This document shows, piece after piece, positions 7,535-63,342 of a stretch of 64,000 bases of DNA (positions are counted from its first letter, which is position 1; each line of letters begins with the position of its first letter). Made by a program: the position numbers and the translations under genes. The notes beneath the pieces are model-generated. The model saw nothing but the letters and a program-made list of their open reading frames with translations, did no database searches and was not told the origin of the DNA. Source of the stretch: Minisyncoccota bacterium (lineage in GTDB: Bacteria; Verrucomicrobiota; Verrucomicrobiia; Limisphaerales; UBA8199); the NCBI GenBank assembly GCA_035452965.1, contig DAOTCE010000015.1:33818-97817 (forward strand), written 5' to 3'.

Positions 7535-7841
7535 CCCACTTGGCCAGTATGGGTTAGAATGGTCAAACGGGGCAGGTGGGCTCAAGTCCTGCATCGCAAG
7601 CCGGATGTCCCCGTCCACGCCCGCCGACTGCCGCTCGCCCCTGGATCTTGAAGCACCCTGCCCCCAAGCCAGATAGGGCGATGTGACGGTCCCAATCCGG
7701 GGGGACTACGGTGTGTATCCCATGGGGGTCGGCCCCCATGGGATACACACTGGGGCATAACGCGTGTCACACCGTTGTCGCACCGGCAATTATGGCTGTG
7801 GGGGCTGCGGGAGGACGCACTACTGTCCTAAAAATGGACAC
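7535..7841 (-). repeat. Copy A of a four-copy interspersed hairpin-centred element (full length, inverted relative to copies B-D)
   Basis: The central palindrome GTGTGTATCCCATGGGGG-TCGG-CCCCCATGGGATACACAC lies at 7711-7750. The reverse complement aligns block by block with 38819..39143: GTGTCCATTTTT..GACAG, GCCGGTGCGACAACGGTGTGAC, CCGTAGTCCC.CCGGATTG, CATCGCC, GGCAGTCGGCGGGCG, CCGGCTTGCG, TTGAGCCCACCTGCC and TTCTAA..ACTGGCCA. It is intergenic, between the divergent sulfatase and GH43 genes. Confidence 0.75.
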
Positions 7842-8005
7842 AACGCAAATTCCCACCAGCGCGGCTATTCAGTCCAGGAATATGGGACTGTGCACATTGC
7901 CTCCACGAGCGCGTTTTCGCCCATTCAGGCCAGGTCTCTGCTTGCTTGACAGCACGGGTCCGAGGTTACAGGCTTCCGTCGCCGGGCAGAGGCCCGGAGA
8001 GATCT

Positions 8006-9166: not shown

Positions 9167-9460
9167 CCAGCTTGACAGCCGCCTCGACCGCAGCCGGCGC
9201 ATAGCGCTTAAGGCCTGCAGCCAACACTACGTCATCCTGTTTTCGTTGTTGCCCTTCGACCTGCAGCCCGGGAAGGTATTAGTCGAAAAGTCTGCACAGG
9301 CATGCGAGCGCAACCTGAGCGGTTTCGAACGCAGACGTCCGCCATCAGCTTCAGTTTGGCGAGCTGATTGGATGCCCAATTGCAGTCATAACGCTGCGTC
9401 TGAAGCGCTTCGGCCTTGACCCATTTCGTTGGTCCGCCCACGATTTGCCCTGCAACGATC

Positions 9461-15400: not shown

Positions 15401-15463
15401 GTGGAATTCAAGTGCGAATTCGACGCCACGGAGCCGCAGCACTTCGAACTGCTTCAACAATGA
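9461..15463 (+). CDS. Giant secreted glycosidase: GH106-like (PF17132-type, alpha-L-rhamnosidase-like) module fused to an ~840-aa C-terminal extension containing a six-hairpin (alpha/alpha)6 glycosidase-like domain
   Basis: The ORF opens at 9416; the ATG at 9461 gives the signal peptide MPSWINF..PPIFLLLLLVALGWASPSAA. The N-terminal block FQRPPESARAWVYWFVMDGNFSREGITADFEALKRAGIGGVSMMEVD and the C-terminal block YYSGTAIYRKSF..LDLGAVKNLAAVRLNGRDLGVVW..LWPNRLIGD are shared with the two paralogs in the window. An inserted WIWHHEGNP..YFRRSF..ALWVNGRPAG..GENILAVAA segment resembles rhamnosidase N-terminal/galactose-binding-like domains. The extension contains DADGDGLVEMM..SDWIDVIWAAHENALVNAELYYALLLWADAEEVLGD. 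Family names are tentative. Confidence 0.82.
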   Translation: MPSWINFTSGAPNHCPSRPPIFLLLLLVALGWASPSAAPGADLDQGFQRPPESARAWVYWFVMDGNFSREGITADFEALKRAGIGGVSMMEVDVGIPRGTVKFMGPEWRALFKHAVAEAERLGLQITLNAGPGWTGSGGPWVKPEESMQHLVASAVEVAGPKRFDEMLPRPQRRPAFFGDGQLPAELEKAKNDFYRDEIVLAFPTPAGNERISDIDEKALYVRAPYSSQPKVKPFLPTSASYPALPSEAVIAADRVLDISERMGPDGRLAWDVPAGRWTIMRFGRTSTGACTRPAPLPGLGLESDKMDPAALEAHFNAFVGVLLREIGPRKQSAESGWTMLHIDSWEMGAQNWTAAFRDEFRRRRGYDPARYLPAVTGRVVDSLEVTERFLWDVRQTAQELVIQNHAERLKELGRRHGFGLSIEPYDMMPCSDMSFGAVADVPMCEFWLHGFDTTYSVIEAASVAHTCGKQIVAAEAFTSDDTERWQAYPGAMKILGDWAFSSGVNRIVFHRYQHQPQLDARPGMTMGPYGVHWERTQTWWDMAGAYHEYLARCQFMLRQGLPVADVCFLVPEGSPHVFRPPSSARIGQPPDRPGYNYDGCAPETLMSRMSVAADGRLVLPDGMSYRVLVLPEMPTMTPALLRKVRDLVKAGATVVGSPPLKSPSLSGYPQCDDEVQKLAAELWGDGSGAPRLQGRVIREAGKNAARSGKSPEPIKLSKWIWHHEGNPADSAPVGSRYFRRSFNLDGKGDVESGRVYMTADNSFALWVNGRPAGKGNNFHAVSVLDVTQMLRPGENILAVAAENGGTAPNPAGLTGALVVKFRDGHVFTVLTDKTWHAAQDTQGKWATARVAAGHWTGAMELGPAGMAPWGEVGLPAVEPEQFCDFTVVSAVLSELGVRPDFESDAPLRYTHRQTRDADIYFVANREERPVETSCIFRVAGKAPELWDPLTGQTRTLPEFTVRDGRTTVPMRFEPAQSFFVVFRKTEGSAGGRNFPRESKVADLPGSWNVAFDPKWGGPQNVVFDRLQDWSKRKEDGIRYYSGTAIYRKSFDAPKSVRGQRMHLDLGAVKNLAAVRLNGRDLGVVWCAPWRVDITDSAKVKGNQLEITVANLWPNRLIGDQSLPPEQRLTSTTWNPFKKDSPLLESGLLGPVSLVAVEGASAAEPKRKRADAQTGHTQTADCAIVEHPGSRLVTLADARSNLVLRLNYNGRCLLDRVIVRSREVIAPETGVCSAIQVSNHWFTTRSGIPAPKVAVSRNKVTVREIVFGGMGIQVTENWEFTVHPDRILWQISRNYGMAGRLEDSYCPGWDFRDMNTWTGGLLDTGGVVWNKYLETSNATYGAHASAVTFWNRDDGACLRIKSEAGASRPPPHLAMRFSHQPSGIQTASFSVTDSELKPRHDLRRFHPSRQDLWAPYEVKPDQLTVTYSLQSLDYGKAFDRGSFQGLNGKSIRDLLNTIGRYGVIDRRILGANGWRTGFTCLHEQWFSQMGIAIDDPDYLANCAATFDFERDHAIEPSGRVKSRWCCLAHDAMPGTYDANGYYEAQWGYLLDSQPCYVICVAELFDLTGDQEWLRGQKSACERALDYLLRRDADGDGLVEMMTDSHKQERGSDWIDVIWAAHENALVNAELYYALLLWADAEEVLGDDARAADYRRCAAKLKVNFNRTAAEGGFWDPQNQWYAYWREKDGSIHGNNLVTPVQFTAIGYGLCDDAERREAILRRIEKEMRNENLFFWPLNFFPYQPGEGHATVNFPFPNYENGDIFLSWGELAVRAYAKSDPAIAVKYIRNVLDRYEADGLSFQRYERKSQRGAGEDILAGNCMPVVGLYRNIYGLQPKHDRIYLEPHLTPELSGTRLRYQLRNQSYLIDLTTAATRVEVEDFAVRSAQPFALSAKGDTAQLFPGKSGGPAMTLSRSRRAPVEIELDTRLADMASERKWIVSSGSAGVVIWHVVSHLTPHAKYELRRENHKVGSFKADGGGQVEFKCEFDATEPQHFELLQQ

Positions 15464-18400
15464 GAACAGTCATTCATGTCGCATTCATGTTGCGCAGCGC
15501 GGTGCTCGTGCTGCTATTCTGCATAGCAACACCAGTTTGGGGGGGGGCCGGCCAAACTGCGGGAGGGGAGCATGATGAGCTTGCCAACGGCTTCGCCGAT
15601 CCGCCCAACAGCGCCCGCCTGCGCGCGTATTGGTGGTGGCTCAATGGAAATGTCACCAAAGCCGCTATTACCCGCGACCTGGAAGAAATGAAGGCCAAGG
15701 GCTTCGGCGGCGCATTGATTTGCGATGCGGGCGGCGCGCAACAGGACGGTAACGACCCGGTGCCGCACGGCCCCACTTTCTTTACGCCCGAGTGGCGCGA
15801 ACTCTACATACACGCGCTGCGCGAGGCCGAGCGCCTGGGCTTGGAGATGAGCTTGAACATACAGAGCGGATGGAACCTGGGCGGACCTATGGTCAAAGCC
15901 GAAGACGCGGCGAAGAAGCTGACCTGGTCGGAGGCCCTCATTAGCGGACCGGCCAAATACGCTGCGGCGCTGCCGGTGCCAAAAGCCCGGGAAGGATTTT
16001 ATCGTGACGTCGCCACAGTGGCGTATCGGCGGACAGCCAGGGCGCGACAGCCGGCCCCGCCAAGCATCACGAGCAGTTCCTCACAGCCGGACCACCTGGC
16101 CGAACTGGCGTGCGACGGCAACTCAGACACGTATTGGGTCTCCTCGGGCACGAAGCCCGGCGAGGGCCCAACTGCGGCTCGCCCTGAGTGGATCCAACTG
16201 AGCTTTCCGCAGACAGTCCGGGGCCTGAAGCTCCATGTCATGGGAAGGCCCGGTTACGGCCCGAAGGAGTGTGAGCTGCAGGTTTCCAACGACGGCAAGA
16301 CCTTCCGGTCCGAGCGTCGGTTTGGCATGGCGGACGGCGAGTCAGCAGAACTAAGCATGGTTGACGCGGACGCCTCGAACATCCGAATCGTTGTGCTGGC
16401 GGCATACGACCGGGGATCGCCTGGTGCGCCACGGAATGTGCAAATTGGCGAGATAAGCTGCTTTTGGAAGGACCATTCCCTGGGGCAGCCCGCGCGCCCG
16501 CCGCTTCAAAATTGGGAGCAAAAAGCGATCTACAAGCCTCTGCACTTTTCTGCGCCTGACACCGCGCCCCTGTTTGAGGAACTGCCGGCCACTCCTGGCG
16601 AGGAGGACACCCGGGCTGCAGATGTCCTGGACCTTACCGCGATGCTCTCCAAAGAAGGCATCTTGCACTGGGATGTCCCGGAGGGCACGTGGCAGGTTAT
16701 TCGGCTCGGCTGCACGATTGGGAACCATTCGCACGTGTCAACTTGCAGCGATGGCTGGCAAGGCTACTCCCTGGACGTGTTGGATGCGGGCGCGTTCCGG
16801 CGTTACTGGGATGCGGTGGTCGAGCCGCTGATCGCCGACGCCGGTCCGTTGGCGGGGCGCACTCTCAAGTATCTGCACACGGACAGTTGGGAAGTCGAGC
16901 CGCTGAATTGGACTCCCAACCTGCGCGCCGAGTTCCGCAAGCGCCGGGGCTACGACCCGCTGCCGTTCTTCCCCGTGCTGGCGGGCCGGATCGTAGATTC
17001 ACGCCCGGCCAGCAACCGCTTTCTGTATGACTTCCGCAAAACACTTGGCGACCTGGCTGTTGACAACCACTACCGCATCTTCCGCGACCTCGCACACAAA
17101 CACGGCCTCCAAATCCATCCCGAGTCCGGCGGACCCCATGCGGTGCCGATTGACGCCCAGCGCTGCCTCGGCATGGATGACGCGCCTATGTCCGAATTCT
17201 GGGCCTGGTCGTGGCGGCACCGGGTCGGGGAAAGCAACCGGTTCTTCGTGAAGCAGCCTGCCTCGGCGGCCCACACCTATGGGCACCGGCTGGTGTTAGC
17301 GGAAGGATTTACCACCATCGGCCCGCATTGGCAGGAGACGCTCTGGGATAATCTGAAACCCTCTTTCGACCAGGCCGCCTGCGAGGGCCTGAACCTGTTG
17401 GTCTGGCATGCGTTCGTGTGCTCCCCGGAGGAGATGGGTCTGCCGGGGCAACAGTATTTTGCCGGAACTCACTTCAATCCAAACACGACGTGGTGGTCGA
17501 GGTCCGCCCCCTTCCTGGCCTATCTCAATCGCTGCCAGTTCATGCTGCAGCAGGGCCTGTTCGTCGCGGATGCCTGCTACTACTATGGCGACCACGTGCC
17601 GAACTTCGCTCAGCTCAAACGCAGCGATCCGGCGCATGTGCTGCCCGGCTACGATTACGATGTCGTGACCGAGGATGTTATCCTCAAGCGCATGTCCGTG
17701 CGGGACGGCCGAATCGTGCTGCCGGACGGGATGAGTTACCGTGTGCTTGCGTTGCCGGATCGGCCCGGCATCTCGCTCGCGGTGCTCAAGAAACTGGAGA
17801 AGATGGTCAAAGCCGGCGCGACCATCGTCGGCCCCAGGCCTGCGCAAACCTATTCATTGAGCGGGTATCCCAAATGCGATGCCGAGGTGGTCCGGCTCGC
17901 GGATCGGTTGTGGGGGAACGATCGGCAGGTGAGCGGCATAAGGCGCTATGGCTGTGGGCGCGTGATCTCCGGGCAGACTCCCCGCCAAGTGCTCGGTGGT
18001 GATGGGCTCAAACCGGACTTCGGCTTCCGGCTGCAGCCGCAACCCACAACCTTGGACCCACAAGCCCCACCGGTGCTGGATTACATTCACCGAGCCAGCC
18101 GCGAAGCGGACATCTACTTTGTGGCAAACCGCTCCAACTGCTGGCTGAAGCCGGATTGCACCTTTCGCGTGGCCGGCAAAGTCCCCGAGCTTTGGGACCC
18201 ACTGACCGGAAGCAGCCGCCTCGCCGCGGTTTACACGCGTAGCGAAGAAACCACCACGCTGCCCCTTCAGTTTGCGCCGTATGGCTCCATGTTCGTGGTG
18301 TTCCGTCAGCCAGCCTCACCCAAGTCCGTCGCCACTGGTCAAACAGGTTCGAATTTCCCGGCCTACTCGGAGCCGCACGAACTCTCCGGAGCGTGGACTG

Positions 18401-18858
18401 TCCAGTTCGATCCCAGGTGGGGCGGGCCGGAATCGGCGGTTTTCGACCAATTAGTCAGTTGGCCCCAGCGATCTGAGGAAGGCATCAAGTATTATTCAGG
18501 CAAGGCGACTTATCACAAAACGTTTGACCTGCCGGAATCGCTGCGTCGTGATCGCCACCGCTTGTCGTTGGACCTGGGCGATGTCAAAAATCTGGCCACG
18601 GTGCGTCTTAATGGAAGGAACTTTGGCACGTTGTGGGCAGTCCCCTTCCGCGTGGACGCGACCGAGGCCATCAAACCGACCGGAAACAAACTCGAGGTGG
18701 AGGTCGTTAACTTCTGGCCCAACCGTATTATTGGAGACCAATTCCTCCAGCCGGAGAAGCGCTTTACGCGCACCAATATCCGGAAACTGACCAAGGACAC
18801 GCCGCTGATGGAGTCCGGTTTGCTCGGCCCGGTGCGTATTCTGGTTGAGGAACGTTAA
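15460..18858 (+). CDS. GH106-like secreted glycosidase paralog with an inserted F5/8-type-C (discoidin)-like domain
   Basis: The ORF opens at 15412. The ATG at 15460 overlaps the upstream stop (ATGA) and gives the signal peptide MRTVIHVAFMLRSAVLVLLFCIATPVWG. Shared blocks are FADPPNSARLRAYWWWLNGNVTKAAITRDLEEMKAKGFGG and YYSGKATYHKTF..LGDVKNLATVRLNGRNFGTLW..FWPNRIIGD. The discoidin-like insert is ELACDGNSDTYWVSS..WIQLSFPQTVRGLKLHV..CELQVSNDGKTF. Confidence 0.82.
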   Translation: MRTVIHVAFMLRSAVLVLLFCIATPVWGGAGQTAGGEHDELANGFADPPNSARLRAYWWWLNGNVTKAAITRDLEEMKAKGFGGALICDAGGAQQDGNDPVPHGPTFFTPEWRELYIHALREAERLGLEMSLNIQSGWNLGGPMVKAEDAAKKLTWSEALISGPAKYAAALPVPKAREGFYRDVATVAYRRTARARQPAPPSITSSSSQPDHLAELACDGNSDTYWVSSGTKPGEGPTAARPEWIQLSFPQTVRGLKLHVMGRPGYGPKECELQVSNDGKTFRSERRFGMADGESAELSMVDADASNIRIVVLAAYDRGSPGAPRNVQIGEISCFWKDHSLGQPARPPLQNWEQKAIYKPLHFSAPDTAPLFEELPATPGEEDTRAADVLDLTAMLSKEGILHWDVPEGTWQVIRLGCTIGNHSHVSTCSDGWQGYSLDVLDAGAFRRYWDAVVEPLIADAGPLAGRTLKYLHTDSWEVEPLNWTPNLRAEFRKRRGYDPLPFFPVLAGRIVDSRPASNRFLYDFRKTLGDLAVDNHYRIFRDLAHKHGLQIHPESGGPHAVPIDAQRCLGMDDAPMSEFWAWSWRHRVGESNRFFVKQPASAAHTYGHRLVLAEGFTTIGPHWQETLWDNLKPSFDQAACEGLNLLVWHAFVCSPEEMGLPGQQYFAGTHFNPNTTWWSRSAPFLAYLNRCQFMLQQGLFVADACYYYGDHVPNFAQLKRSDPAHVLPGYDYDVVTEDVILKRMSVRDGRIVLPDGMSYRVLALPDRPGISLAVLKKLEKMVKAGATIVGPRPAQTYSLSGYPKCDAEVVRLADRLWGNDRQVSGIRRYGCGRVISGQTPRQVLGGDGLKPDFGFRLQPQPTTLDPQAPPVLDYIHRASREADIYFVANRSNCWLKPDCTFRVAGKVPELWDPLTGSSRLAAVYTRSEETTTLPLQFAPYGSMFVVFRQPASPKSVATGQTGSNFPAYSEPHELSGAWTVQFDPRWGGPESAVFDQLVSWPQRSEEGIKYYSGKATYHKTFDLPESLRRDRHRLSLDLGDVKNLATVRLNGRNFGTLWAVPFRVDATEAIKPTGNKLEVEVVNFWPNRIIGDQFLQPEKRFTRTNIRKLTKDTPLMESGLLGPVRILVEER

Positions 18859-21132: not shown

Positions 21133-22047
21133 TTGAAATTGGCCCCTACATTGGTCATCCTGGCCGCCGGCATTGGTGCCCGCTACGGCGGATTGAAACA
21201 GATAGAACCCGTTGGCCCGGCCGGGGAGGCCGTCTTGGATTACTCGGTCTTTGATGCGAGGCGCGCGGGTTTTGGCAAGTTCATCTTCGTCATCCGCCGC
21301 GACGTCGAGCAGGATTTTCGGGACAGCTTTGGCCGGCGCTTCGCCAGGCACGTGAATATCGATTATGCCATCCAGTCCCTGGACATGGTGCCGCCTAACT
21401 GCTACGTCCCGCCCGATCGTCAGAAGCCGTGGGGAACCGGCCATGCCGTGTTGTGCGCCGCTCTGTTGCTGGACCGCCCTTTCGCGGTCATCAACGCGGA
21501 CGACTTCTACGGGGCGGAGTCCTTCGGCGTGCTCGCCCGGTTCTTGACGCAGACCGCGCCCTCCAATCCCGACCTGTTCGCGATGGTGGGTTTCCAACTG
21601 GACCGCACACTTTCGGAGCACGGCACCGTGGCGCGGGGCCTCTGCCAGACGGATGAGGAGGGATACTTGACATCCGTTGAGGAGTTGACCGCCATCGAAA
21701 GACAGCCCATTGGCGCCCGCAACCGGGAGGCTGATGGCAGTTACCGTGACCTGACCGGGCTGGAGACTGTTTCGATGAATTGCTGGGGATTTACACCGAA
21801 ATTGCTGCCCGGCCTGCGCTGCTTATTCAGCGAGTTTCTGGCCCGCAACCAGGCCAACCTCAATGCCGAGTTCTACCTGCCCACGGCCGTCAATGCGCTG
21901 ATGCGGGAGGGGCTTGTACGAGTTACTGTGTTGCCAACATGGTGCCATTGGTTCGGCGTGACCTATCGTGAGGACCGCGCGGTGGTAGTGGACAGCATCC
22001 GGGCGCTCATTCGTGCCGGCAAGTATCCAGCACGGTTGTGGGGTTGA
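21133..22047 (+). CDS. Sugar-1-phosphate nucleotidyltransferase (NTP_transferase fold)
   Basis: 304 aa with a TTG start per the ORF track. It has the N-terminal nucleotide-binding loop LVILAAGIGARYGGLKQIEPVG, then WGTGHAVLCA and VINADDFYG. The sugar specificity is unknown. Confidence 0.78.
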   Translation: MKLAPTLVILAAGIGARYGGLKQIEPVGPAGEAVLDYSVFDARRAGFGKFIFVIRRDVEQDFRDSFGRRFARHVNIDYAIQSLDMVPPNCYVPPDRQKPWGTGHAVLCAALLLDRPFAVINADDFYGAESFGVLARFLTQTAPSNPDLFAMVGFQLDRTLSEHGTVARGLCQTDEEGYLTSVEELTAIERQPIGARNREADGSYRDLTGLETVSMNCWGFTPKLLPGLRCLFSEFLARNQANLNAEFYLPTAVNALMREGLVRVTVLPTWCHWFGVTYREDRAVVVDSIRALIRAGKYPARLWG

Positions 22048-22055
22048 ACCCCCCT

Positions 22056-23189
22056 ATGTCTGAGAGCCAGCCGAGACACGATCTTCGCTCTGTCGCCGCG
22101 CACTTCCAGATCTACGGCGATTTCCGGGAAGCCGCGCCTTACGGCAGCGGCCACATCAACGACACCTACGCCGCCGTCTTCAATCAATCCGGCAGCTCGA
22201 TGCGCTACATCTTCCAACGCATAAACCACAACGTCTTTAAGAACCCCGCCGGTCTGATGGTCAATGTCGAGCGTGTCACGACGCACATCCGCCGCAAGTT
22301 GGAGGCGCTTGGTGCGGATCAGATCTCCCGGCGCGTCCTGACGCTGGTGCGCGCGAACGACGGCAAGTGCTGCTATGCGGATGCCGCAGGCAACCACTGG
22401 CGCTGTTACCTGTTCATTGAGCACGCAACGAGCTACGACCGGATTGAGACTCCCCGGCAGGCATTCGAGGCAGCCCGGGCGTTCGGCCAGTTCCAGAAAC
22501 ACCTTGCCGACCTGCCGGCACCTCGACTGGAGGACACCATACCCGACTTCCACCACTCACGCAGGCGCTTTGACGCGCTGCGCCAGGCGATCGAACGGGA
22601 CGCCTGCAATCGGGCCGCCGGGGTAAAAGCGGAGATCGGGTTCGCGCTGCGGCACGAGCCGCTCGTGGATGTGCTGCTGGGCCTGCAAGCGCGCGGCCAA
22701 CTCCCGGAACGAGTAACGCACAACGACTGCAAGCTCAACAACGTCATGCTCGATGACGCCACCGGCGAGGGCATGTGTGTGATTGACCTTGATACGGTTA
22801 TGCCTGGCCTGGCCCTCTATGATTTCGGCGATATGTGCCGCACAGCCGCATGCCCAACGCTGGAGGACGAGTCCGACCTCTCCAGGGTCGAAATGCGCAT
22901 GGACATGTTCGAGGCGCTGGTCGGTGGGTACTTGGCGTCCGCAGGCCAGTTCCTGACTCCTGTCGAGAAGGACCATCTCGTGTTCTGCGCCAAGCTTATT
23001 ACCTTCGAGATTGGCTTCCGATTTCTGGAGGACCATCTGCGGGGCGACCTCTATTTCAAGGTCCATCGTCCGGGCCAAAGCGCGGACCGTGCACGGGTCC
23101 AGTTCAAGATGGTGGACTCATTCGAACGCAACGAGGTGGCGATGCGCAAAGTGGTGGAGGTGGCCGAGCGCCAAGTCGGGCGACAATAG
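22056..23189 (+). CDS. Anomeric sugar kinase of the APH/NahK family (N-acetylhexosamine 1-kinase-like)
   Basis: The ORF opens at 22038 (GTG, overlapping the upstream stop); ATG at 22056 is preferred. Blocks PYGSGHINDTY, FQRINHNVFKNPAGLMVNVERVT and the catalytic loop THNDCKLNNVMLD..VIDLDTVMPGLALYDFGD match my recollection of NahK/LnpB-type kinases. Confidence 0.75.
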   Translation: MSESQPRHDLRSVAAHFQIYGDFREAAPYGSGHINDTYAAVFNQSGSSMRYIFQRINHNVFKNPAGLMVNVERVTTHIRRKLEALGADQISRRVLTLVRANDGKCCYADAAGNHWRCYLFIEHATSYDRIETPRQAFEAARAFGQFQKHLADLPAPRLEDTIPDFHHSRRRFDALRQAIERDACNRAAGVKAEIGFALRHEPLVDVLLGLQARGQLPERVTHNDCKLNNVMLDDATGEGMCVIDLDTVMPGLALYDFGDMCRTAACPTLEDESDLSRVEMRMDMFEALVGGYLASAGQFLTPVEKDHLVFCAKLITFEIGFRFLEDHLRGDLYFKVHRPGQSADRARVQFKMVDSFERNEVAMRKVVEVAERQVGRQ

Positions 23190-23317
23190 TTAATCTCGGA
23201 TTTACGGGAAGTTCCAACGGTCGTTTTCACCCCTATATACCGGATGACCAATGCACAGTGAATAGAAGGTCAGCAATGGTCCCGGTCCAAAACAATCCTG
23301 GCCCCCCAACTCGTGCA

Positions 23318-23495
23318 CTGTCCACATTTTGGACAGTTGTGCCGCCTGTCTGCTTTCTCCAGTCCCAGAAAACGCCGGTCTCCTTGGCTTGCGGATGCGG
23401 TAACAACATGGTGGCGCTACGGTGTGTATCCCATGGGGATCGCTCCCCATGGGATACACACCGTAGGCTAACCGCACTAACAAGCCATCCTCCAG
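23318..23495 (+). repeat. Copy B of the interspersed hairpin element (divergent; 3' half not conserved)
   Basis: CTGTCCACATTTTGGACAG lies at the 5' end. The perfect hairpin GGTGTGTATCCCATGGGGA-TCGC-TCCCCATGGGATACACACC is at 23421-23462 and is followed by CCGTAG. It is intergenic, between the kinase and the ceramidase-like gene. Confidence 0.6.
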
Positions 23496-23855
23496 CCCAC
23501 CACAAGCCAATGCGAGGGTATGGCCACCCTGACGACGGTGTCGCCCGTCCAGCGAGGGTACCGGCGGTTAGAGGGGCCGCCCGAGAAGACAAATCGCCAT
23601 CGGTATTCTCCGGGAGTCCGCAAAGAACCAATGAGTAGTTTCAAGTTGGAAGTGCCTTAGCGTGACGCATGTCCTGCTTGCGGGAATTCGAGGAGGTCGC
23701 CAAGCCATTTGCGCATTGCACAGTCGCCAGTTTGCTCTATAACTAGGCAATGAAGCTGCGCCATTCAGTTCCCGCCTATTGCAGCCTGCCTCCGGGTTAA
23801 TGACATTATGAAAGCCTGGAAGGACTTAGCGTGCAGCAACCGCCGGTTGGGGAAA

Positions 23856-28386: not shown

Positions 28387-28538
28387 CGGTTTGACCTGTG
28401 TGTTTAGCGTAGCGCAGGCGTCCTCGCCTGCGGGCTCCGGCCGCATCTCGCCCTCGGTTTGCATCCGCGCACCGACATGGCGCGCCAAACCGCAGGCGGG
28501 GACGCCTGCGCTACGCTAAACACATACGGTTTGACCTG
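28387..28538. mobile_element. MITE-like insertion: 126-bp element with 35-bp terminal inverted repeats, flanked by a 12-bp direct duplication
   Basis: The left arm TGTGTTTAGCGTAGCGCAGGCGTCCTCGCCTGCGG (28399-28433) matches the reverse complement of 28490-28524 at 34 of 35 positions. The direct repeat CGGTTTGACCTG occurs at 28387-28398 and 28527-28538. Each arm contains the sub-hairpin GCAGGCG-N4-CGCCTGC. It is intergenic, between the TIM-barrel gene and the ARH-like gene. Confidence 0.55.
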
Positions 28539-31899: not shown

Positions 31900-31936
31900 C
31901 CGAAGCGGCAGCCGTCTCCAAATAGAAAAGACTCCT
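31900..31936 (+). promoter_or_regulatory. Copy 1 of a conserved 37-nt intergenic motif
   Basis: CCGAAGCGGCAGCCGTCTCCAAATAGAAAAGACTCCT matches 34771-34807 at 34 of 37 positions, and the flanks are unrelated. It lies in the divergent region between the ABC ATPase and the GloVer-repeat gene. Confidence 0.5.
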
Positions 31937-34770: not shown

Positions 34771-34807
34771 CCGAAGCGGCAGCTGCCTCCAAATAGAAAA
34801 AACTCCT
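34771..34807 (+). promoter_or_regulatory. Copy 2 of the conserved 37-nt intergenic motif
   Basis: CCGAAGCGGCAGCTGCCTCCAAATAGAAAAAACTCCT lies 109 nt upstream of the ATG (34916) of the third GH106-like gene, in the same orientation as copy 1. Confidence 0.5.
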
Positions 34808-34915
34808 TGCGCAGATTCGGGCGCAATAGGGGTTGTGGTACTGGGGGTTTTCGGGTTTGCTGGTGGGGGCGTGCACCGGAAGGTGCCACCCAGGCGAGAG
34901 TCGAAAGAGAGCACT

Positions 34916-37900
34916 ATGCGAAACAGGATCACCCCCGTAAATCTGTGGCTGACCATATCCACCATGGCCAGCCTTTTTTTGACCGCGAACCTTGACGCTG
35001 CGGCAAGCGACCTTGCCCGGGGCTTCGCTTCGCCGCCTCAGTCCGCCAAGCCGTGGGTCTATTGGTTCTGGTTGGATGGAAATATCACACGCGAGGGAAT
35101 CACCGCCGACCTGGAGGCCATGCGGCGGGTGGGGATTGGCGGGGTGCTGATCATGGAAGTGGACCAGGGAGCGCCCCCAGGGCCCGCGCGGTTTGCCAGC
35201 CCACAGTGGCGCGAGCTCTTCAAGTTCATGCTCACCGAGGCCAAACGACTGGGCCTGGAAGTCAACATGAACAACGACGCCGGCTGGTGCGGGAGCGGCG
35301 GGCCGTGGATTCCGCCCGCGCTGGCCATGCAGAAAGTGGTGTGGACGACCACCAACCTGGATGGGCCGCGCCGGTTCGAGGGGGTGCTCCCGGAACCGCA
35401 AAGAGTGGCGAATTACTATGAGGACATCGCCGTGCTGGCCTTCCCAACTCCAGCGGAGTATCAGATCGAGAACATCCAGGCCAAGGCGGCGTTCATCCGT
35501 CAGGAAGTGCCGTTCAGGAAGTTGTCGGAGCCACTCCCGGTGGAGAAGACCATTGCTCGCGGCGGCAGCCGCGAGTTGACGGCGCAGATGGGCAAAGATG
35601 GCCGGCTGGCGTGGGATGTGCCGCCTGGCAAGTGGACGGTGCTACGCTTAGGCCATACCCCGACCGGCAAAGATAATCATCCCGCGCCGCTTGATGGCCG
35701 GGGACTGGAGTGTGACAAGCTGAGCCGCAAAGCGGCGGACGCCATGTTCGAGGGACTGATGGGCAAGCTTATCGCGGATTCCAAGGCGCTGGCGGGCAAG
35801 ACGCTGGTGGCGACGCACATTGATAGCTGGGAGGTGGGATCGCAGAACTGGACCCTGGCCTTCCGCGAGGAGTTCAAGCGGTTGCGCGGCTACGACCCAT
35901 TGCCCTTCCTGCCGGTGATGACGGGGCGCGTAGTGGAGAGCCTGGAAGTATCCGAGCGGTTCCTGTGGGACCTGCGCCAGACCATTTCAGAGTTGGTGGT
36001 GGCGAACTACGCGGGGCGGTTTCGCGAGCTGGCGCACGAACACGGGTTGCGGCTCTCCATCGAGGCATACGATGGCTGCTGCGACGACATGACCTACGCC
36101 GGCCAGGCCGATGAACCGATGGGCGAATTTTGGTCATGGACTTTTGGCAGCGGCGCGGATTGGTGCACCGAGATGGCCTCTGCAGCACACATTTACGGAA
36201 AGCCCATTCTGGGCGCCGAAGCGTTCACGGCAACGGACAAAGAGAAGTGGCTCGGGCATCCAGGCGGCATCAAGGCGCTGGGCGACTGGGCATTCTGCGA
36301 AGGAATCAACCGGTTTGTGTTCCACCGCTATGCGTTACAGCCGTGGCGGGATGTGAAGCCCGGCATGTCTATGGGGCCGTGGGGGCTGCATTACGAGCGC
36401 ACGACGACCTGGTGGGAACAGTCCACAGCCTGGCACGAGTATTTGTCCCGCTGTCAGTACTTGCTCCAGCAGGGGCAATTCATTGCGGATGTCTGCTACC
36501 TGTCGCCGGAAGCGTCGCCCTATCGCTTCCGCGCTCCGCCGACGCCCGGGAACCCGTCGCATCGGCCTGCCTACAACTTCGACGGCTGCACCCCTGAGGC
36601 AGTGCTGACACGTATGAAAGTGAAGGGCGGACGGCTCGTTTTGCCCAGTGGCATGAGCTACCGCGTGCTTGTCCTGCCCGAGGTGGAAACGATGACTCCC
36701 AAACTGCTGCGCAAAGTCAGGGATCTAGTCGAAGCAGGCGCGACAGTCGTTGGGCCAGCCCCGTTGAGGTCGCCCAGCCTCTCGAACTTTCCGCAGTGCG
36801 ACGAGGAAATCGCGACGCTCACGCGCGAGCTTTGGGGCGGCGGGGCAGGGGAGGGGACCAGCTTGTTCGGGCGGGGCCGAGTGATTTGGCCCATTGAGCA
36901 AAGGGAACAAGAGCCGCAGGACATGCCAGCCCGACTTGGGTCGGCCAAGTGGATCTGGTTTAAGGAAGGCAATCCGGCCGCAGCGGTGCCCGCCGGCCGA
37001 CGCTACTTCCGTCGAGTGCTAAACCTGGAAGCGGCGGCAGAGGTTGAATCCGCACCAATGGTGATGACCGCCGACAATGAATTCGAGCTTTGGGTCAACG
37101 GTCGTCGTGCCGGAGGAGGAGCAGACTTCAATCATACCTTTGCAATGGACTGCGCGCGCCTACTTGTGCCGGGTTCGAACTTGCTGGCGGTGGCGGCCGT
37201 AAACGGCGCGGATGCACCCAATCCCGCGGCATTGATTGGCAACCTGATTATCAAGTATCGCAGTGGCCGCACCATCCAGGTGCCCACCGACGGCAAATGG
37301 GAGTCGGCCAGGACGGTCCAGGGCGACTGGCGCGGCGACGTGCAGGCCCCCGGAGCCTGGGAACCGGCGCTGGAAGTCGGGGCGCTGGGGATGGCGCCTT
37401 GGGGAGACGTCACGGCACAGGCGCAGGCGCCGTACCCGAGCGCGGAGGCAACTGCGGTCCTGCTGCGCAAACTGGGCGTGCCGCCGGACTTTGATTACGC
37501 GACCCAGAGCACGGAGCGGAGCCTGCGCTACATCCACAAGCGGCTTGGCAAGACAGACCTCTATTTCGTGGCCAACGAGAAGCCGCACCCCGAGGCAGCG
37601 GTGTGCAGCTTCCGCGTTCAAGGCAAACGGCCAGAGCTATGGTGGCCGGACAGCGGGAAGATCGAACAGTCGGCGGTGTATGACGAGACAGGCGGCTGCG
37701 TGCGGATGCCGATTCATTTTGACGCAAGCGGCTCGGTCTTCGTGATGTTCCGCCCGGGCGGCGACCTGGAGCGGGACCGGATCATAGCCGTGGAGCGAAA
37801 CGGTGAAGCACTGGTTGACTTACGTAAGCAAGAACTGTCGGCGCCTGTGTTGGAAGAGGCCGTAATTGGGTTGGTTCGCGGCAAGGCGGGCACCGTGCAG

Positions 37901-38560
37901 GCGGACGTTCGTAAGCCGGGCAAATATGCATTGGTTTCCGCAGATGGATCCCGGCGGGAGTTCGAAGCCGACACCTTACCCGAGCCGTTAGAGATCACCG
38001 GCCCTTGGCAGGTGCGGTTCGCGCCCGGAGGCGGAGCGCCAGCGCAAGTCACGCTTGACCGGCTGATCTCCTGGAGCCAACACGGGGATTCGGGCGTGAG
38101 ATACTTTTCGGGCACGGCGACTTACCATAGGACTTTTGACCTGCCAACGGGGTTCGCAGCACGGCACCGGCGGTTATGCTTGGATCTTGGCCGAGTTGAA
38201 GTGATGGCGGAGGTGAAGCTCAATGGCAAGAATCTCGGCATCCTCTGGAAGCAGCCGTATTGTGTGGACGTGACCGACACGGTGAAGCCGGGGCAGAACA
38301 AGTTGGAGCTGGCGGTCGTCAATCTCTGGCCCAACCGGCAAATCGGCGACGAGCGACTGCCCGAGGACAGCGAGCGCAATCCAAACGGCACCCTCAAGCA
38401 ATGGCCGCAATGGCTGCTCGACGGCAAGCCGAGCCCGACCGGGCGCCACACGTTCACAAGCTGGCGCCTGTGGCAGCGAGATTCCCCGCTGGTCGAGTCT
38501 GGCCTGCTCGGGCCCGTGACGTTGCGGCCAGCAGAGCGGGTGATGCTTTCACCCAAGTGA
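34916..38560 (+). CDS. GH106-like secreted glycosidase paralog (with rhamnosidase-N/galactose-binding-like insert)
   Basis: The ORF opens at 34835; the ATG at 34916 gives MRNRITPVNLWLTISTMASLFLTANLDAAA. Shared blocks are FASPPQSAKPWVYWFWLDGNITREGITADLEAMRRVGIGGVLIMEVD and YFSGTATYHRTF..LGRVEVMAEVKLNGKNLGILW..LWPNRQIGDE. The insert AKWIWFKEGNP..YFRRVL..ELWVNGRRAG..GSNLLAVAA matches that of the 2015-aa ORF-track paralog. Confidence 0.82.
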   Translation: MRNRITPVNLWLTISTMASLFLTANLDAAASDLARGFASPPQSAKPWVYWFWLDGNITREGITADLEAMRRVGIGGVLIMEVDQGAPPGPARFASPQWRELFKFMLTEAKRLGLEVNMNNDAGWCGSGGPWIPPALAMQKVVWTTTNLDGPRRFEGVLPEPQRVANYYEDIAVLAFPTPAEYQIENIQAKAAFIRQEVPFRKLSEPLPVEKTIARGGSRELTAQMGKDGRLAWDVPPGKWTVLRLGHTPTGKDNHPAPLDGRGLECDKLSRKAADAMFEGLMGKLIADSKALAGKTLVATHIDSWEVGSQNWTLAFREEFKRLRGYDPLPFLPVMTGRVVESLEVSERFLWDLRQTISELVVANYAGRFRELAHEHGLRLSIEAYDGCCDDMTYAGQADEPMGEFWSWTFGSGADWCTEMASAAHIYGKPILGAEAFTATDKEKWLGHPGGIKALGDWAFCEGINRFVFHRYALQPWRDVKPGMSMGPWGLHYERTTTWWEQSTAWHEYLSRCQYLLQQGQFIADVCYLSPEASPYRFRAPPTPGNPSHRPAYNFDGCTPEAVLTRMKVKGGRLVLPSGMSYRVLVLPEVETMTPKLLRKVRDLVEAGATVVGPAPLRSPSLSNFPQCDEEIATLTRELWGGGAGEGTSLFGRGRVIWPIEQREQEPQDMPARLGSAKWIWFKEGNPAAAVPAGRRYFRRVLNLEAAAEVESAPMVMTADNEFELWVNGRRAGGGADFNHTFAMDCARLLVPGSNLLAVAAVNGADAPNPAALIGNLIIKYRSGRTIQVPTDGKWESARTVQGDWRGDVQAPGAWEPALEVGALGMAPWGDVTAQAQAPYPSAEATAVLLRKLGVPPDFDYATQSTERSLRYIHKRLGKTDLYFVANEKPHPEAAVCSFRVQGKRPELWWPDSGKIEQSAVYDETGGCVRMPIHFDASGSVFVMFRPGGDLERDRIIAVERNGEALVDLRKQELSAPVLEEAVIGLVRGKAGTVQADVRKPGKYALVSADGSRREFEADTLPEPLEITGPWQVRFAPGGGAPAQVTLDRLISWSQHGDSGVRYFSGTATYHRTFDLPTGFAARHRRLCLDLGRVEVMAEVKLNGKNLGILWKQPYCVDVTDTVKPGQNKLELAVVNLWPNRQIGDERLPEDSERNPNGTLKQWPQWLLDGKPSPTGRHTFTSWRLWQRDSPLVESGLLGPVTLRPAERVMLSPK

Positions 38561-38818
38561 CAGGCAATTCCAATAGTGCCAGGTAGGCGCATTTGGCCCG
38601 AGAAACCGCCGACTGGCCACACTTGGCGACGCGACGCCAGGATTCTGGGCGCTAAGCACAATTGAGGATGTCACGCCTCTGTAGGGTCGTAGGCTTCGTC
38701 CTGGAGGCTGCGAATGCAGCGTTTTTGAGCCATTAAGGCCCCGCCCCATCCTCCCGCGCTCCAGTGCTCCAGCCCCCTGTTCCTCGGCGAAATTGCCGTC
38801 CATGCGGAAAGTGGTGCC

Positions 38819-39143
38819 GTGTCCATTTTTGAGACAGTTGCGATTGTCAGCCCCGCCGCAGGAGATCGAAGTGCCGGGGCGACAACGGTGTGACCCCCGT
38901 GATACCCCGGTGTGTATCCCATGGGGATCGCTCCCCATGGGATACACACCGTAGTCCCACCGGATTGCCGCCGTTCCATCGCCATAGTTGGACTTGGCCT
39001 GCGGGGCCTCCGGCCTGGGGCACTTGTGGTGCCTGTGGTTAGGGCGGCAGTTGGTGGGCGCGGCCGGATGGACCCGGCTTGCGGCGCGTTTTTTGAGCCC
39101 ACCTGCCTGGTTGAACCGTTCTAATCGAAACTGGCCAGGTTGG
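38819..39143 (+). repeat. Copy C of the interspersed hairpin element (full length)
   Basis: The hairpin GGTGTGTATCCCATGGGGA-TCGC-TCCCCATGGGATACACACC is at 38909-38950. It is flanked by GCGACAACGGTG (38879-38890) and CCGTT..CATCGCC (38971-38983), which can pair as an outer helix. It is collinear with the reverse complement of copy A over ~300 bp. It lies between the convergent GH106-like and OmpA-like genes. Confidence 0.75.
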
Positions 39144-39283
39144 ATTCGGCGCTACCGACAGGGAATGCTGTAGTGGATTGCCGAAATCACGCAGTTGGAT
39201 ACCAGAGTGGTAAGTAAATTGTAGGCTCGCAATGACCCAGAGCTGCGAGGTGCGCAGGAAACAGCTCCCGGGGCGCAAGCACG

Positions 39284-53626: not shown

Positions 53627-53771
53627 GCGGAGGACTGTCGTTCATTACCCGCCCTACGGCAAGCGCCATTTCGGCCGCTGTTGACGGGGAAAAGCACGTG
53701 AAACTGCATATACGCGCACTGCTACCACAGTACATTAACAGAATCCCCCATTCATGAACCGAACCTCCCTC

Positions 53772-53900
53772 CCGGTGCGACAACGCTGTGAAGCCCGTTA
53801 GAACCCGGTGTGGTTCCCATGGGGGCCGACCCCCATGGGAACCACACCGTAGTCCCGCCGGATTGGCACCGTTGCATCGCCGTAGCTGGATTCTGCGGCA
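53772..53900 (+). repeat. Copy D of the interspersed hairpin element (core only; variant stem with compensatory changes)
   Basis: CCGGTGCGACAACGCTGTGA is followed by the hairpin GGTGTGGTTCCCATGGGGG-CCGA-CCCCCATGGGAACCACACC (53807-53848), then CCGTAGTCCCGCCGGATTGGCACCGTTGCATCGCC. It lies 60 nt upstream of the exosortase ATG. The 5' GTGTCCATTTTT block is absent. Confidence 0.65.
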
Positions 53901-53958
53901 TGGACAGGAAATAGCTCAGCCAATACAGAGCTGGCAAGCAAGGGCTTGTTTGGCTAGT

Positions 53959-55620
53959 ATGCGAACAAGTAATGCCATGCGGACGGCTGACCAATCCACC
54001 GTGGATAGCGCCAATCAAGAGCGCCAGCTCCCAAGTGTTGTTGCGCCAAGGCTGGCGGGCGGTTACAGCCTCTGGTTCGCACTGGGCTATGCTCCGCTGC
54101 TGGCGCTGTTCTTTATCAACTTGTGGGGCAGACCGCATTATCGGTTCTTCCCGCTAGCATTGATGGCAGCGGCTTTTTTGGCTTGGGATAGGCTGAAAGA
54201 GGTGCCCCGTCCACTCGTTGCAGGAACTCGCCGGGTAACCGGGTTGCTGCTGGGGGCGTCGTTCATCCTCCTGGTGGTTGCCTCGGGGTATTGGTCGCCG
54301 TGGCTGGTTACCTCGGCGGCCTGGACGGGTCTCGTCGGGGTAATCTGGTGGCAGGGCGGGAGGCGGCTTCTGACGGCGATGCTGCCGGCGCTGGTGCTGC
54401 TGTTGACCATCGTCCCTCTGCCCCTCTCCGGAGATGCCCGCTTGATCCAGCAGATTCGCGTGCTGGCGGTCAAATGGAGCAGCACCATGCTGGACATGCT
54501 GGGGGTCACGCATGCTCTGAGCGGCAACGTGATCGAGTTGCCTCGGCAGCAGTTGCTGGTGGACGAGGCCTGCAGCGGCATTAACTCTGTGCTGATAACC
54601 TTGGCCTGTGCGCTGTTCTACGGTATGTGGCGGCGGCGGCCCTGGATCCATATTCTCGTTGGCCTGGCCAATGCGCTTGCGTTCGTGTTGCTGGGGAACC
54701 TGGCCCGCATCACGCTGGGAGCGTGGCTGAAATATCGTTACGGCATCAACATCCTTACCGGGGCAGCCCACGAGGCGATCGGCTTGGTTCTGTTCGCAAG
54801 CTACCTTGTGATGATCCTCAGCATGGACCAGTTGCTGTGGTACTTGTTCAGCCCAGCCAGGCCGCGATCGAAACAGCCCACCACTGGGGTGGCAGTGGGA
54901 GGCCCTCCGCCACAAGCGTTCGTGGCGGGACTTGCTCCCGCCTGGGCGCGCGTGGCGGGGTGCGCGTTTGCATTGGTGGGCGTGGTGGACCTGGCATTGA
55001 TCTGGGTGCATCACCAGCACCCGGGTGCACAACTGGCCCGGTCCAAGCCGGCCCTGATGGCCGGCGCAAGGTTCGCGATGCCCGACCAGATTGGCGCCTG
55101 GAGGCGGCTGACCACGGAAGTGCCGCCACTCCAGAAGGTCGAGACGCTGGGGGTGTATTCGCAGGTCTGGCATTACCGCAAGGGGGATACGCTGGCATCG
55201 CTGGCACTCGACTATCCGTTCCAAGGGTACCACGACGTGACGCTGTGCTACACTCTTCGCGGCTGGGACTTGCTGGAGCGGCGTGCCCTTGACAGGCGGG
55301 GGACGAACGCTTGCCCCGCGCTGGCGGAGGTCCGGATGCGGAACAACGTAGGTCTGCACGCCGCCCTCTGGTACAGTGTCGTGGATGAGCGTGGCCGGTG
55401 GCTGCCCGGGCCGGGGTTCAAGCCGAGTTTCAAGGATAGTCTCCTGCGACGGATAAGACTGGGAGAGCTTAACAGCACGGTCACCTACCAAGTACAGGTG
55501 CTGTCCACGGGCTTCAATCCACTGCTCCCGCCCGAGCGGGAACAAGTGCGGCAGCTTTTTGAGGAGGCGCGTGTCCTGCTCTGGCAGCAGCTGAGTCGGC
55601 AAATGCGGCGCGACACATGA
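53959..55620 (+). CDS. Exosortase (EpsH/Xrt family) fused to a C-terminal EpsI-like domain
   Basis: The ORF opens at 53788 inside repeat D; ATG at 53959 is preferred. It is polytopic, with the catalytic-triad context VDEACSGINSV (Cys), LGNLARITLG (Arg) and AAHEAIGLVLF (His). The C-terminal ~190 aa (MPDQIGAWRRL..YHDVTLCYTLRGWDLL) are EpsI-like. Confidence 0.83.
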   Translation: MRTSNAMRTADQSTVDSANQERQLPSVVAPRLAGGYSLWFALGYAPLLALFFINLWGRPHYRFFPLALMAAAFLAWDRLKEVPRPLVAGTRRVTGLLLGASFILLVVASGYWSPWLVTSAAWTGLVGVIWWQGGRRLLTAMLPALVLLLTIVPLPLSGDARLIQQIRVLAVKWSSTMLDMLGVTHALSGNVIELPRQQLLVDEACSGINSVLITLACALFYGMWRRRPWIHILVGLANALAFVLLGNLARITLGAWLKYRYGINILTGAAHEAIGLVLFASYLVMILSMDQLLWYLFSPARPRSKQPTTGVAVGGPPPQAFVAGLAPAWARVAGCAFALVGVVDLALIWVHHQHPGAQLARSKPALMAGARFAMPDQIGAWRRLTTEVPPLQKVETLGVYSQVWHYRKGDTLASLALDYPFQGYHDVTLCYTLRGWDLLERRALDRRGTNACPALAEVRMRNNVGLHAALWYSVVDERGRWLPGPGFKPSFKDSLLRRIRLGELNSTVTYQVQVLSTGFNPLLPPEREQVRQLFEEARVLLWQQLSRQMRRDT

Positions 55621-63015: not shown

Positions 63016-63342
63016 ATGAATCGGACCAAGCGCTTGAAAGGCACCTGCACCGAATGCGGCGGCCCCATCGAGTTCCCCGCCGAGATGATCGGCGCGACAG
63101 CCCAATGTCCGCGCTGTCGGAAGCAAACCGAGTTGCGTCTGTCCGCCCCGCCAGAAGAGCCAGTGGTGCCGCGCCGAGTGATCGTCTGGACCGCCGTAAC
63201 CATTGCGATTCTGGTCCTGGCTGCGGTTGCCCTGGTGATTGGGCTCAAGCACTTTGAGGAATTGAATGCCAGCCAGACGCAGCAGGCTGCTGGCGTCGAA
63301 GCCGCCCGTTCGACGAATTCGCCGGCGCCGGCCAGGCAATAG
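63016..63342 (+). CDS. Small zinc-ribbon membrane protein (hypothetical)
   Basis: 108 aa with CTECGGPIEFP..(N10)..CPRCRKQT (CxxC..CxxC) followed by the TM helix VIVWTAVTIAILVLAAVALVIGL. I recognise no family; it may be real given the clean architecture. Confidence 0.5.
   Translation: MNRTKRLKGTCTECGGPIEFPAEMIGATAQCPRCRKQTELRLSAPPEEPVVPRRVIVWTAVTIAILVLAAVALVIGLKHFEELNASQTQQAAGVEAARSTNSPAPARQ

Follow-up and report, generated by a model that had tools for sequence, protein, structure and literature searches.

A Palindrome with Covarying Arms Lies at the Core of a Dispersed Intergenic Repeat Family in Verrucomicrobiota

Four Palindromes in One Window

The 64,000-nt stretch analysed here (GenBank assembly GCA_035452965.1, contig DAOTCE010000015.1, positions 33,818 to 97,817), hereafter the window, carries four 42-nt palindromes, which we call copies A to D. 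All four are intergenic, and their neighbours include genes for a sulfatase, GH43 and GH106 proteins, an APH-family kinase, an OmpA-family protein, a TlpA-like thioredoxin and an exosortase. Both these genes and the closest homologues that bear a name indicate Verrucomicrobiota, and the window matches the metagenome contig ERZ761563 NODE_143. The palindromes belong to a repeat family in which the two arms are kept complementary across more than 100 copies, and the question that occupies us below is how this symmetry is maintained.

Copy D, at window 53807–53848, reads GGTGTGGTTCCCATGGGGGCCGACCCCCATGGGAACCACACC and forms a 19-bp stem with the loop CCGA; C53806 and G53849 add a 20th pair, which gives 20 contiguous pairs as RNA or as DNA. 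Copies B (23421–23462) and C (38909–38950) both read GGTGTGTATCCCATGGGGATCGCTCCCCATGGGATACACACC. Copy A, placed on the minus strand on the evidence of its flanks, has the same TA stem, and its outermost position holds an uncompensated A·C (G·T on the plus strand), leaving 18 contiguous pairs. The arms common to A, B and C are GTGTGTATCCC and GGGATACACAC, those of D GTGTGGTTCCC and GGGAACCACAC. A preliminary description of this DNA had stated that TA>GT on one arm of D is mirrored by TA>AC on the other, so that the stem stays perfect, and that the loop-closing pair covaries with the loop. The sequence bears out both statements: the closing pair is G-C in A and D, where the centre reads GGGGG-CCGA-CCCCC, and A-T in B and C, where it reads GGGGA-TCGC-TCCCC. 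The pattern CCCATGGGG-N6-CCCCATGGG occurs four times in the window against 0.07 expected, and a covariance model scores the four copies at 67–85 bits, the next best window match reaching 10.6 bits; chance is therefore excluded. The hairpin centres, at 7731, 23442, 38930 and 53828, are spaced by 15.7, 15.5 and 14.9 kb. In long metagenome contigs the spacing is irregular (5.5–107 kb), and the regularity seen here is probably due to chance.

A Dispersed Family with Two Subfamilies

The hairpins are not free-standing but form the centres of dispersed intergenic repeats of 250–480 bp (Table 1). Copies A, read on the reverse strand, and C are alike over about 400 nt at roughly 70–75% identity; D matches both over the central ~180 nt, and B matches only in the hairpin and in a small palindrome upstream of it. 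Copy D is without the small-palindrome module, most of its 3′ part is deleted, and on the 3′ side it borders on the likely start codon of the exosortase gene (ATG, 53974). The blast coverage of the D element runs from about 53750 to 53900, and the outer limits given in Table 1 were drawn by eye. Short-read Logan assemblies of the same organism (L238 and L239, position 1) stop inside the D hairpin, at about window position 53833; the palindrome breaks short-read assemblies.

Species-representative genomes, scanned with the inner stem alone, yielded at least 19 true relatives, most of them in metagenome-assembled genomes (MAGs) of Verrucomicrobiota and 14 in a single one, CAZVFC01. A metagenome scan, in which the inner stem and three outer pairs were fixed and five pairs per arm left free, added at least 118 more distinct copies, a large share of them located on long contigs of Ga0209507, Ga0209310 and ERZ795054. 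The collected loci (~1 Mb) and the window together hold at least 140 exact hairpins, and the 137 with full flanks are the basis of the counts given below; all these numbers are lower bounds. Compared by blast with the collected loci, the window copies proved to be bounded repeats and not conserved genes. A literature search found no earlier description of this repeat family, and there was no match among viral contigs or plasmids that would indicate a phage or plasmid origin.

Flanking sequence defines two subfamilies, which together account for 87 of the 137 copies: a B type with 50 members, including window copy B, and a C type with 37, including A, C and D. The C type occurs in long and short forms that differ by an optional module of ~85 nt. 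One chimera, in locus L193, has a B-type left side and a C-type right side, joined at the hairpin. Nearly all copies (128/137) are intergenic. They lie between tandem, convergent and divergent gene pairs in a ratio of 54/20/16, which matches the background of 335/98/95, and between tandem genes 18 copies run in the same direction as the genes and 20 in the opposite one, so that there is no orientation bias.

A diverged relative in L240 (3890–4070) has a small palindrome, TGTCTAAAACATAGACA, and its arms each contain four 11-nt CGGTG units, but its inner stem is a different and imperfect one, TCCCCCGCGGG-TCCA-CCCCCCCGGGA. The superfamily is wider than our pattern searches could detect.

Table 1. 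Features of the four repeat copies, in window coordinates.
Feature	Position	Strand	Description
Copy A, whole element	7535..7891	-	C-type long form, between divergent sulfatase and GH43 genes
Copy A, hairpin	7710..7751	-	TA allele, centre GCCGAC, one A·C mismatch at the stem base
Copy A, small palindrome	7823..7841	-	TGTCC-ATTTTTA-GGACA
Copy B, whole element	23188..23629	+	B-type miniature inverted-repeat transposable element
Copy B, small palindrome	23318..23336	+	CTGTCCA-CATTT-TGGACAG; nearly invariant across aligned B-type copies
Copy B, hairpin	23417..23466	+	TA allele, centre ATCGCT; CTAC/GTAG lengthens the stem to 23 pairs
Copy C, whole element	38779..39197	+	C-type long form, between convergent GH106 and OmpA-family genes
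Copy C, small palindrome	38819..38837	+	GTGTCCATTTTTGAGACAG
Copy C, hairpin	38908..38951	+	TA allele, centre ATCGCT, 20-bp stem
Copy D, whole element	53717..53970	+	Short C-type form; boundaries approximate
Copy D, left arm	53773..53805	+	11-nt phased units CGGTGCGACAA / CGCTGTGAAGC / CCGTTAGAACC running into the stem
Copy D, hairpin	53806..53849	+	20-bp perfect stem, GT allele (GTGTGGTT/AACCACAC), centre GCCGAC
Copy D, right arm	53850..53882	+	Mirrored 11-nt phased units ending CCG: TAGTCCCGCCG / GATTGGCACCG / TTGCATCGCCG

Stem Alleles and Covariation of the Arms

The dinucleotide that sets D apart falls into a few alleles among the 137 copies: TA/TA in 47, GT/AC in 43, TC/GA in 22, GC/GC in 16, and TA–GT hybrids in four. 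The left and right TA/GT alleles are strongly linked (47, 43 and 4 hybrids; Fisher p = 7e-22), and 14 distinct outer-stem variants are fully paired. Over the 24-pair stem, 94.9% of the cells are paired against 85.2% in shuffles, and double-changed cells number 354 against 139. The covariation score is 0.252 against 0.089 when shuffled, a value that none of 500 shuffles reaches, and slid controls score at most 0.064. The proposal that the pairing of the arms is actively kept is thus upheld over the whole set of copies and not just in the window. Uncompensated arm changes do occur: all four TA/GT hybrids are among the 37 C-type copies, and mismatches at the stem base (position 20) are common there (10/37).

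Both TA and GT alleles are present in both subfamilies and in several genomes. In the C type, GT with the centre GCCGAC is the commonest form and TA the minority; in the B type most copies have TA. Since GT is common in D's subfamily, D carries an ordinary allele and is not the product of a local event. The earlier reading of copy D as a local compensatory change has therefore to be given up: GT/AC is widespread, and it is the majority form within the C type.

Discrete alleles, of which a few dominate, could also be the outcome of pure descent without function, TA and GT being two recently amplified master lineages and the perfect stems a sign of youth. Some close copies do have the same allele (L180, L225 and L233). 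We give this explanation very little credence, however, as the copies are old, with flanks only 55–76% identical and most target duplications decayed, whereas their hairpins are intact and identical apart from the alleles. Nor do the alleles track the relatedness of the flanks: the flank-nearest neighbour has the same stem allele in 35 of 48 B-type and in 14 of 34 C-type comparisons, and both alleles are found in both diverged subfamilies. Loop inversions and hybrids, finally, require exchange.

Ends, Target Duplications and Mobility

B-type copies are mobile elements. In about 15 of them, GGTTCATCACGGATTTCCGGGAA is found in inverted orientation at both termini, and the terminal inverted repeats measure 23 bp; in window copy B the left repeat (23188–23210) agrees with the consensus at 19 of 23 positions and the right one (about 23607–23629) at ~16 of 23. 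In L135 (TGAATTAG) and L180 (CCTTTTTT) the 8-mers outside the two ends are the same. Over the ~15 two-ended copies, this duplication is perfect in the two named, 7/8 in L153 and L202, and 6/8 in three more, the chance of one perfect 8-mer match being ~1.5e-5. Because of its 23-bp terminal inverted repeats and 8-bp target-site duplications, we regard the B type as a miniature inverted-repeat transposable element (MITE), to judge from sequence of the DDE type, with an AT-rich target. A duplication of 8 bp is compatible with the insertion sequence (IS) families ISL3, IS6, IS66, IS1595 or IS256. C-type ends show only a short inverted match of 10–11 nt (CCGCAATCCAY / GTGGATTTGCG). Neither beside orphan terminal repeats nor between paired copies did we find a transposase gene, the genes there being ordinary ones.

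Eight related contigs with orthologues of the genes that flank D and B (TlpA and APH; 72–85% protein identity) have no element at the corresponding places. In the window, B (23190–23810) and D (53630–53975) sit exactly where the gene order departs from that of these relatives; the repeats may mark points of rearrangement, or they may insert at the borders of operons. In one relative, L241, another long palindromic repeat (ATTCTCATTATGGAC...GTCCATAATGAGAAT, at 2800–2960) fills the intergenic region upstream of the TlpA orthologue.

A different kind of mobility was suggested by the preliminary description, which linked the hairpin to enzymes of the RAYT (REP-associated tyrosine transposase) or IS200/IS605 type. 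In such a scheme the hairpin would be recognised and moved as single-stranded DNA by a Y1 transposase, as are repetitive extragenic palindromes (REPs). The resemblance is considerable: both are extragenic, multi-copy palindromes, GTAG abuts the stem in many of our copies, and REP subfamilies with alternative complementary stem residues are known, GTAG-tagged REPs being abundant in the verrucomicrobium O. terrae (PMC3733652). One carrier MAG also has a RAYT-like gene, found by phmmer with E. coli RayT as the query (a single query, of limited sensitivity) among 9087 open reading frames of the hairpin-centred loci. This gene, in L015, is nevertheless 5 kb away from the hairpin, and the repeats in front of it are classic REPs with another sequence (GTAGCGCAGGTTTCCAAACCTGC).

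The polarity of the tag differs as well. REPs that serve RAYT proteins have GTAG (or CGTC) at the 5′ foot of the stem. Our hairpin reads 5′-CTAC-stem-GTAG-3′, with GTAG 3′ of the stem on both strands, while a classic REP in the same window reads 5′-GTAG-stem. REPs are defined as palindromes of 20–40 nt overall with a 5–13 bp stem (PMC3733652), against 19–24 bp here. Unlike REP, BIME or REPIN repeats, the hairpin sits in a larger element that, in the B type, has inverted-repeat ends and 8-bp duplications, which are not products of Y1 transposition, and there is no preference for the 3′ ends of genes. We consider the link to RAYT or IS200/IS605 enzymes improbable. For similar reasons, an IS200/IS605-derived palindromic element was rejected, its hairpin being expected in a subterminal position and ours being central in an element with inverted-repeat ends and 8-bp duplications.

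The classic REP just mentioned is a GTAG-tagged head-to-head dimer at window 28399–28526, made of GTAGCGCAGGCG-TCCT-CGCCTGCG and its mirror. A 12-bp direct repeat, CGGTTTGACCTG, borders the dimer on both sides (28387–28398 and 28527–28538) and looks like a target duplication. REPs of this type also precede the RAYT-like gene of L015.

Architecture of the Core

The two arms of the core mirror each other about a central CG, and each is a series of 11-nt units in which CGGTG is combined with a variable hexamer. The CGG motif begins at a distance of 22, 33, 44, 55 and 66 nt from the centre in 92, 62, 53, 36 and 14% of arms, respectively. The perfect stem consists of the innermost unit and CCCATGGGG alone; the outer units have the same motif, with unpaired spacers. 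In L015, L091, L136 and L141 there are two to four identical units per arm, forming perfect palindromes of up to ~70 nt. The centre is NNCGNN in every copy except for one AGTGCT, and it is often a full palindrome itself (AGCGCT, GTCGAC, GCCGGC or ATCGAT). About 75 nt upstream, the B type and the long C type have a second, nearly invariant palindrome, CACTGTCCAAATTTTGGACAGTG (TGTCCA-N5-TGGACA), which looks like a binding site for a dimeric protein; in a fold of 23 B-type copies its stem pairs in 23/23. When the RNA structure of the whole B-type element was predicted with RNAalifold, the additional long-range pairs were only weakly supported.

Runs of 11-nt tandem units also occur without the CCCATGGGG hairpin or beyond it (L005, about 960–1060; L119, about 5830–5870; L141, 950–1050), for example four to five of CACCGGATGCA facing three of TGCATCCGGTG, or four of AGAAGAACCGT. 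Judged by these runs, units of 11 nt seem to serve generally as building blocks in the carrier genomes.

This layout resembles that of a double-stranded recombination or binding site, with inverted 10-bp half-sites (TCCCATGGGG) around a 6-bp NNCGNN and with phased 11-bp repeats in the flanking arms. By analogy, it could be the core site of a tyrosine recombinase together with arm-type sites, or a place where a multimeric DNA-binding protein of the element or of the host assembles. The attP-type sites of lambda-type integrases have a similar layout. Half-sites and central CG are invariant around a variable 6-bp centre, the CGG motif is strictly phased at 11 nt in up to five units per arm, the chimera of B and C subfamilies is joined exactly at the core, and B and D are located where synteny with relatives ends. 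Positions that no protein contacts, on the other hand, need no symmetric variation, yet the variable hexamer covaries almost perfectly, and the invariance of the half-sites is in part a matter of how the copies were collected. A phmmer search of the ~1 Mb of hairpin-centred loci with XerD, a query of limited sensitivity, found no tyrosine recombinase; it returned one 12-bit match that Pfam did not confirm. Altogether, we hold a duplex site of this kind to be quite unlikely as the explanation of the symmetry.

In a further reading, the core is a dedicated assembly site for a multimeric protein (a central recombinase or transposase, or a host chromosome organiser) that would be kept by, or exchanged between, otherwise unrelated mobile repeats. 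The core would then consist of the CG-centred palindrome, up to five mirrored CGG(TG) units per side, and the 17–23 bp TGTCCA-N5-TGGACA palindrome ~75 nt off. We regard this as somewhat speculative and rather unlikely. If it were true, the family would be a bacterial foldback-type element of a new class, with its active site in the middle and not at the ends.

How the Arms May Stay Symmetric

The reading that we favour, with a probability of about 0.55, is that the palindrome is the core of a mobile family, that D is its GT allele, and that the arms are homogenised by DNA-level templating on a constrained palindrome. Non-autonomous repeats of ~250–480 bp, MITE- or foldback-like in kind, have multiplied in a clade of Verrucomicrobiota. 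Variation would enter the stem and spread as multi-nucleotide blocks, with one arm copied to the other. A likely route is replication template switching inside the palindrome, which would also invert the loop; another is exchange between copies at the hairpin. The templating would act on a palindrome whose integrity is itself constrained, and we infer that an intact DNA hairpin, cruciform or symmetric site is what has to be preserved. The data themselves establish that the family exists, how it is built, that the B type is mobile, that the D variant is an allele and that the arms covary strongly; the templating mechanism is deduced from them.

Several observations fit this picture. The alleles differ by whole blocks of nucleotides (TA/GT, and TAC/CCC at the base), and these are met again in both diverged subfamilies, combined in many ways. 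Loops are found in both orientations: in the C type ~22 copies have GCCGAC, CCCGAC or ACCGAC and three have GTCGGC, and in the B type ~10 have GTCGGC or GTCGGG and three the opposite orientation. Homogenisation of arms together with inversion of the spacer has been described as the signature of template switching (PMC8604942). Template switching has been proposed to create and to maintain perfect hairpins (PMC8794818), and a quasipalindrome system has been described in E. coli (PMC7202029). Constraint is needed in addition, because old copies, with diverged flanks and decayed duplications, keep intact hairpins. We found no decayed copy in the window with the covariance model, and none in the ~1 Mb of loci when three to five mismatches to the skeleton were allowed.

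The main competing explanation for such covariation is that the hairpin acts as RNA, a 19–24 bp stem in an mRNA serving as a signal for processing, stability or termination, for instance as a substrate of RNase III. Processing of hairpin RNA has been described for ERIC and Correia repeats. RNA folds of the whole core reach -70 to -74 kcal/mol, with z-scores of -4 to -9.5, and the copies are mostly intergenic, so that many must fall in transcribed untranslated regions, where a perfect palindrome would fold in transcripts of either strand. Strong covariation is itself what an RNA would show, and for REP-type repeats a role as RNA is assumed in many species (PMC3733652). The substitutions tell against it. 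The pairs are swapped between UA and GC, and among AU, UA and CG; these changes cannot pass through a wobble intermediate and therefore argue against stepwise compensation in RNA. G·U is nearly absent at the variable pairs (0–2 cells), and among single mismatches it is no commoner than A·C. The stem has no T-run on its 3′ side and a terminator scan is blank at the hairpins, there is no orientation bias and no avoidance of divergent promoter regions, and Rfam returns only sub-threshold matches to generic microRNA hairpins. An RNA role would also leave the central CG, the often palindromic centre and the 11-nt arrays with their unpaired spacers unexplained. It is reasonable to consider it unlikely, though not negligible. 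The preliminary description had taken the paired changes as a sign of selection or of templated copying. The pattern of change speaks more for templated copying of DNA than for selection on an RNA, in view of the transversion-type swaps, the scarcity of G·U, the inverted loops and the lack of strand bias.

A number of points weigh against templating within a mobile palindrome. Both scans required the inner stem CCCATGGGG...CCCCATGGG and the metagenome scan fixed three outer pairs as well, so the invariance of these parts may simply reflect ascertainment. Many copies come from few metagenomes, so that the cells do not represent independent events, and the shuffle control takes no account of relatedness. 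About four of the 14 CAZVFC01 copies have an internal stem mismatch, which indicates that imperfect stems are tolerated for some time. For the C type, to which D belongs, an offset scan of the 10 copies with placeable ends found no target duplication. No autonomous element or transposase with matching ends is present in the window and the fetched loci, and the relatives that lack B and D also lose synteny there, so that no clean empty site, boundary or duplication can be read from them. Template switching, for its part, would be known here from its footprints in the sequence and not from observation, and ordinary RecA-dependent conversion between copies would have only 40–50 bp of homology to work with. 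Finally, a perfect palindrome gives the same RNA hairpin either way, and the lack of strand bias is therefore compatible with a role as RNA.

Comparison with Known Systems

Among known elements, the closest in kind are bacterial MITEs with a long-hairpin fold, namely ERIC/IRU of enterobacteria, Correia/NEMIS of Neisseria and RUP of pneumococcus. Like these, our repeats are small, non-coding, present in many copies and intergenic in any gene context; they have terminal inverted repeats and duplications (here in the B type), form a long imperfect palindrome overall, and vary in length through optional modules. They are unlike them in that the best conserved part is the perfect central palindrome and not the termini, that this core is common to subfamilies with different ends, that the arms are built of 11-nt phased units, and that no parent IS is known.

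Quasipalindrome correction by replication template switching produces multi-nucleotide arm identity in one step together with inversion of the spacer (PMC7202029, PMC8604942, PMC8794818), and our family shows both footprints. It is, in contrast, a general mutational mechanism and not an element, and here it would have acted, as deduced from sequence comparison, repeatedly on hundreds of dispersed copies.

Eukaryotic foldback (FB) elements offer another parallel. Those of Drosophila have long inverted arms built of short tandem repeats. Our cores likewise have mirrored arms of short tandem units, with a likeness of the two arms within a copy that is above chance and a number of units that varies. 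FB elements belong to another domain of life and are much larger; we mean this as an analogy only, with no sign of common ancestry.

Other candidates were rejected. An intrinsic terminator does not fit a 3′ flank of GTAGTCCC or GTAGCC, which has no T-run, and the terminator scan was blank at the hairpins. Integron attC sites are imperfect palindromes that contain R''/L''-L'/R' boxes (GTTRRRY) and follow short cassettes in an array beside intI. The copies described here lie 5–100 kb apart in ordinary gene neighbourhoods and have no GTTRRRY box. CRISPR and retron readings were ruled out on context. In the whole window, Rfam 15 gave no match at the gathering score, and at E<=1 it listed only microRNA-precursor models, at 17–30 bits against cut-offs of 52–98.

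Other Features of the Window

Three large paralogous genes of the GH106 (alpha-L-rhamnosidase) family lie at window 9416–15463, 15412–18858 and 34835–38560. The longest direct repeats of the window (D1, D2 and D6) are due to coding similarity among these genes and do not belong to the element. Near two gene starts, at 31900–31936 and 34771–34807, lies a 37-nt direct repeat (CCGAAGCGGCAGCCGTCTCCAAATAGAAAAGACTCCT) with 92% identity, which may be a common leader or promoter region.

The APH-family product (22038–23189) is 100% identical to an NCBI protein labelled Candidatus Paceibacterota, and its homologues at 72–73% are labelled Verrucomicrobia; the Paceibacterota label probably stems from a mis-binned source contig. 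On the minus strand at 63070–63161, ARAGORN predicts a tRNA-Ala(TGC) of 92 nt, unusually long for a bacterial tRNA.

Conclusions

The family is best taken as a further case of MITE-like repeats, with a small chance that its architecture marks something new. It documents a repeat family of Verrucomicrobiota whose 11-nt phased arms are unusually regular. A compensatory double substitution of textbook appearance, such as the one in copy D, can stem from allelic, block-wise copying between the arms of a mobile palindrome, which calls for caution in covariation-based RNA discovery in repeat-rich genomes.

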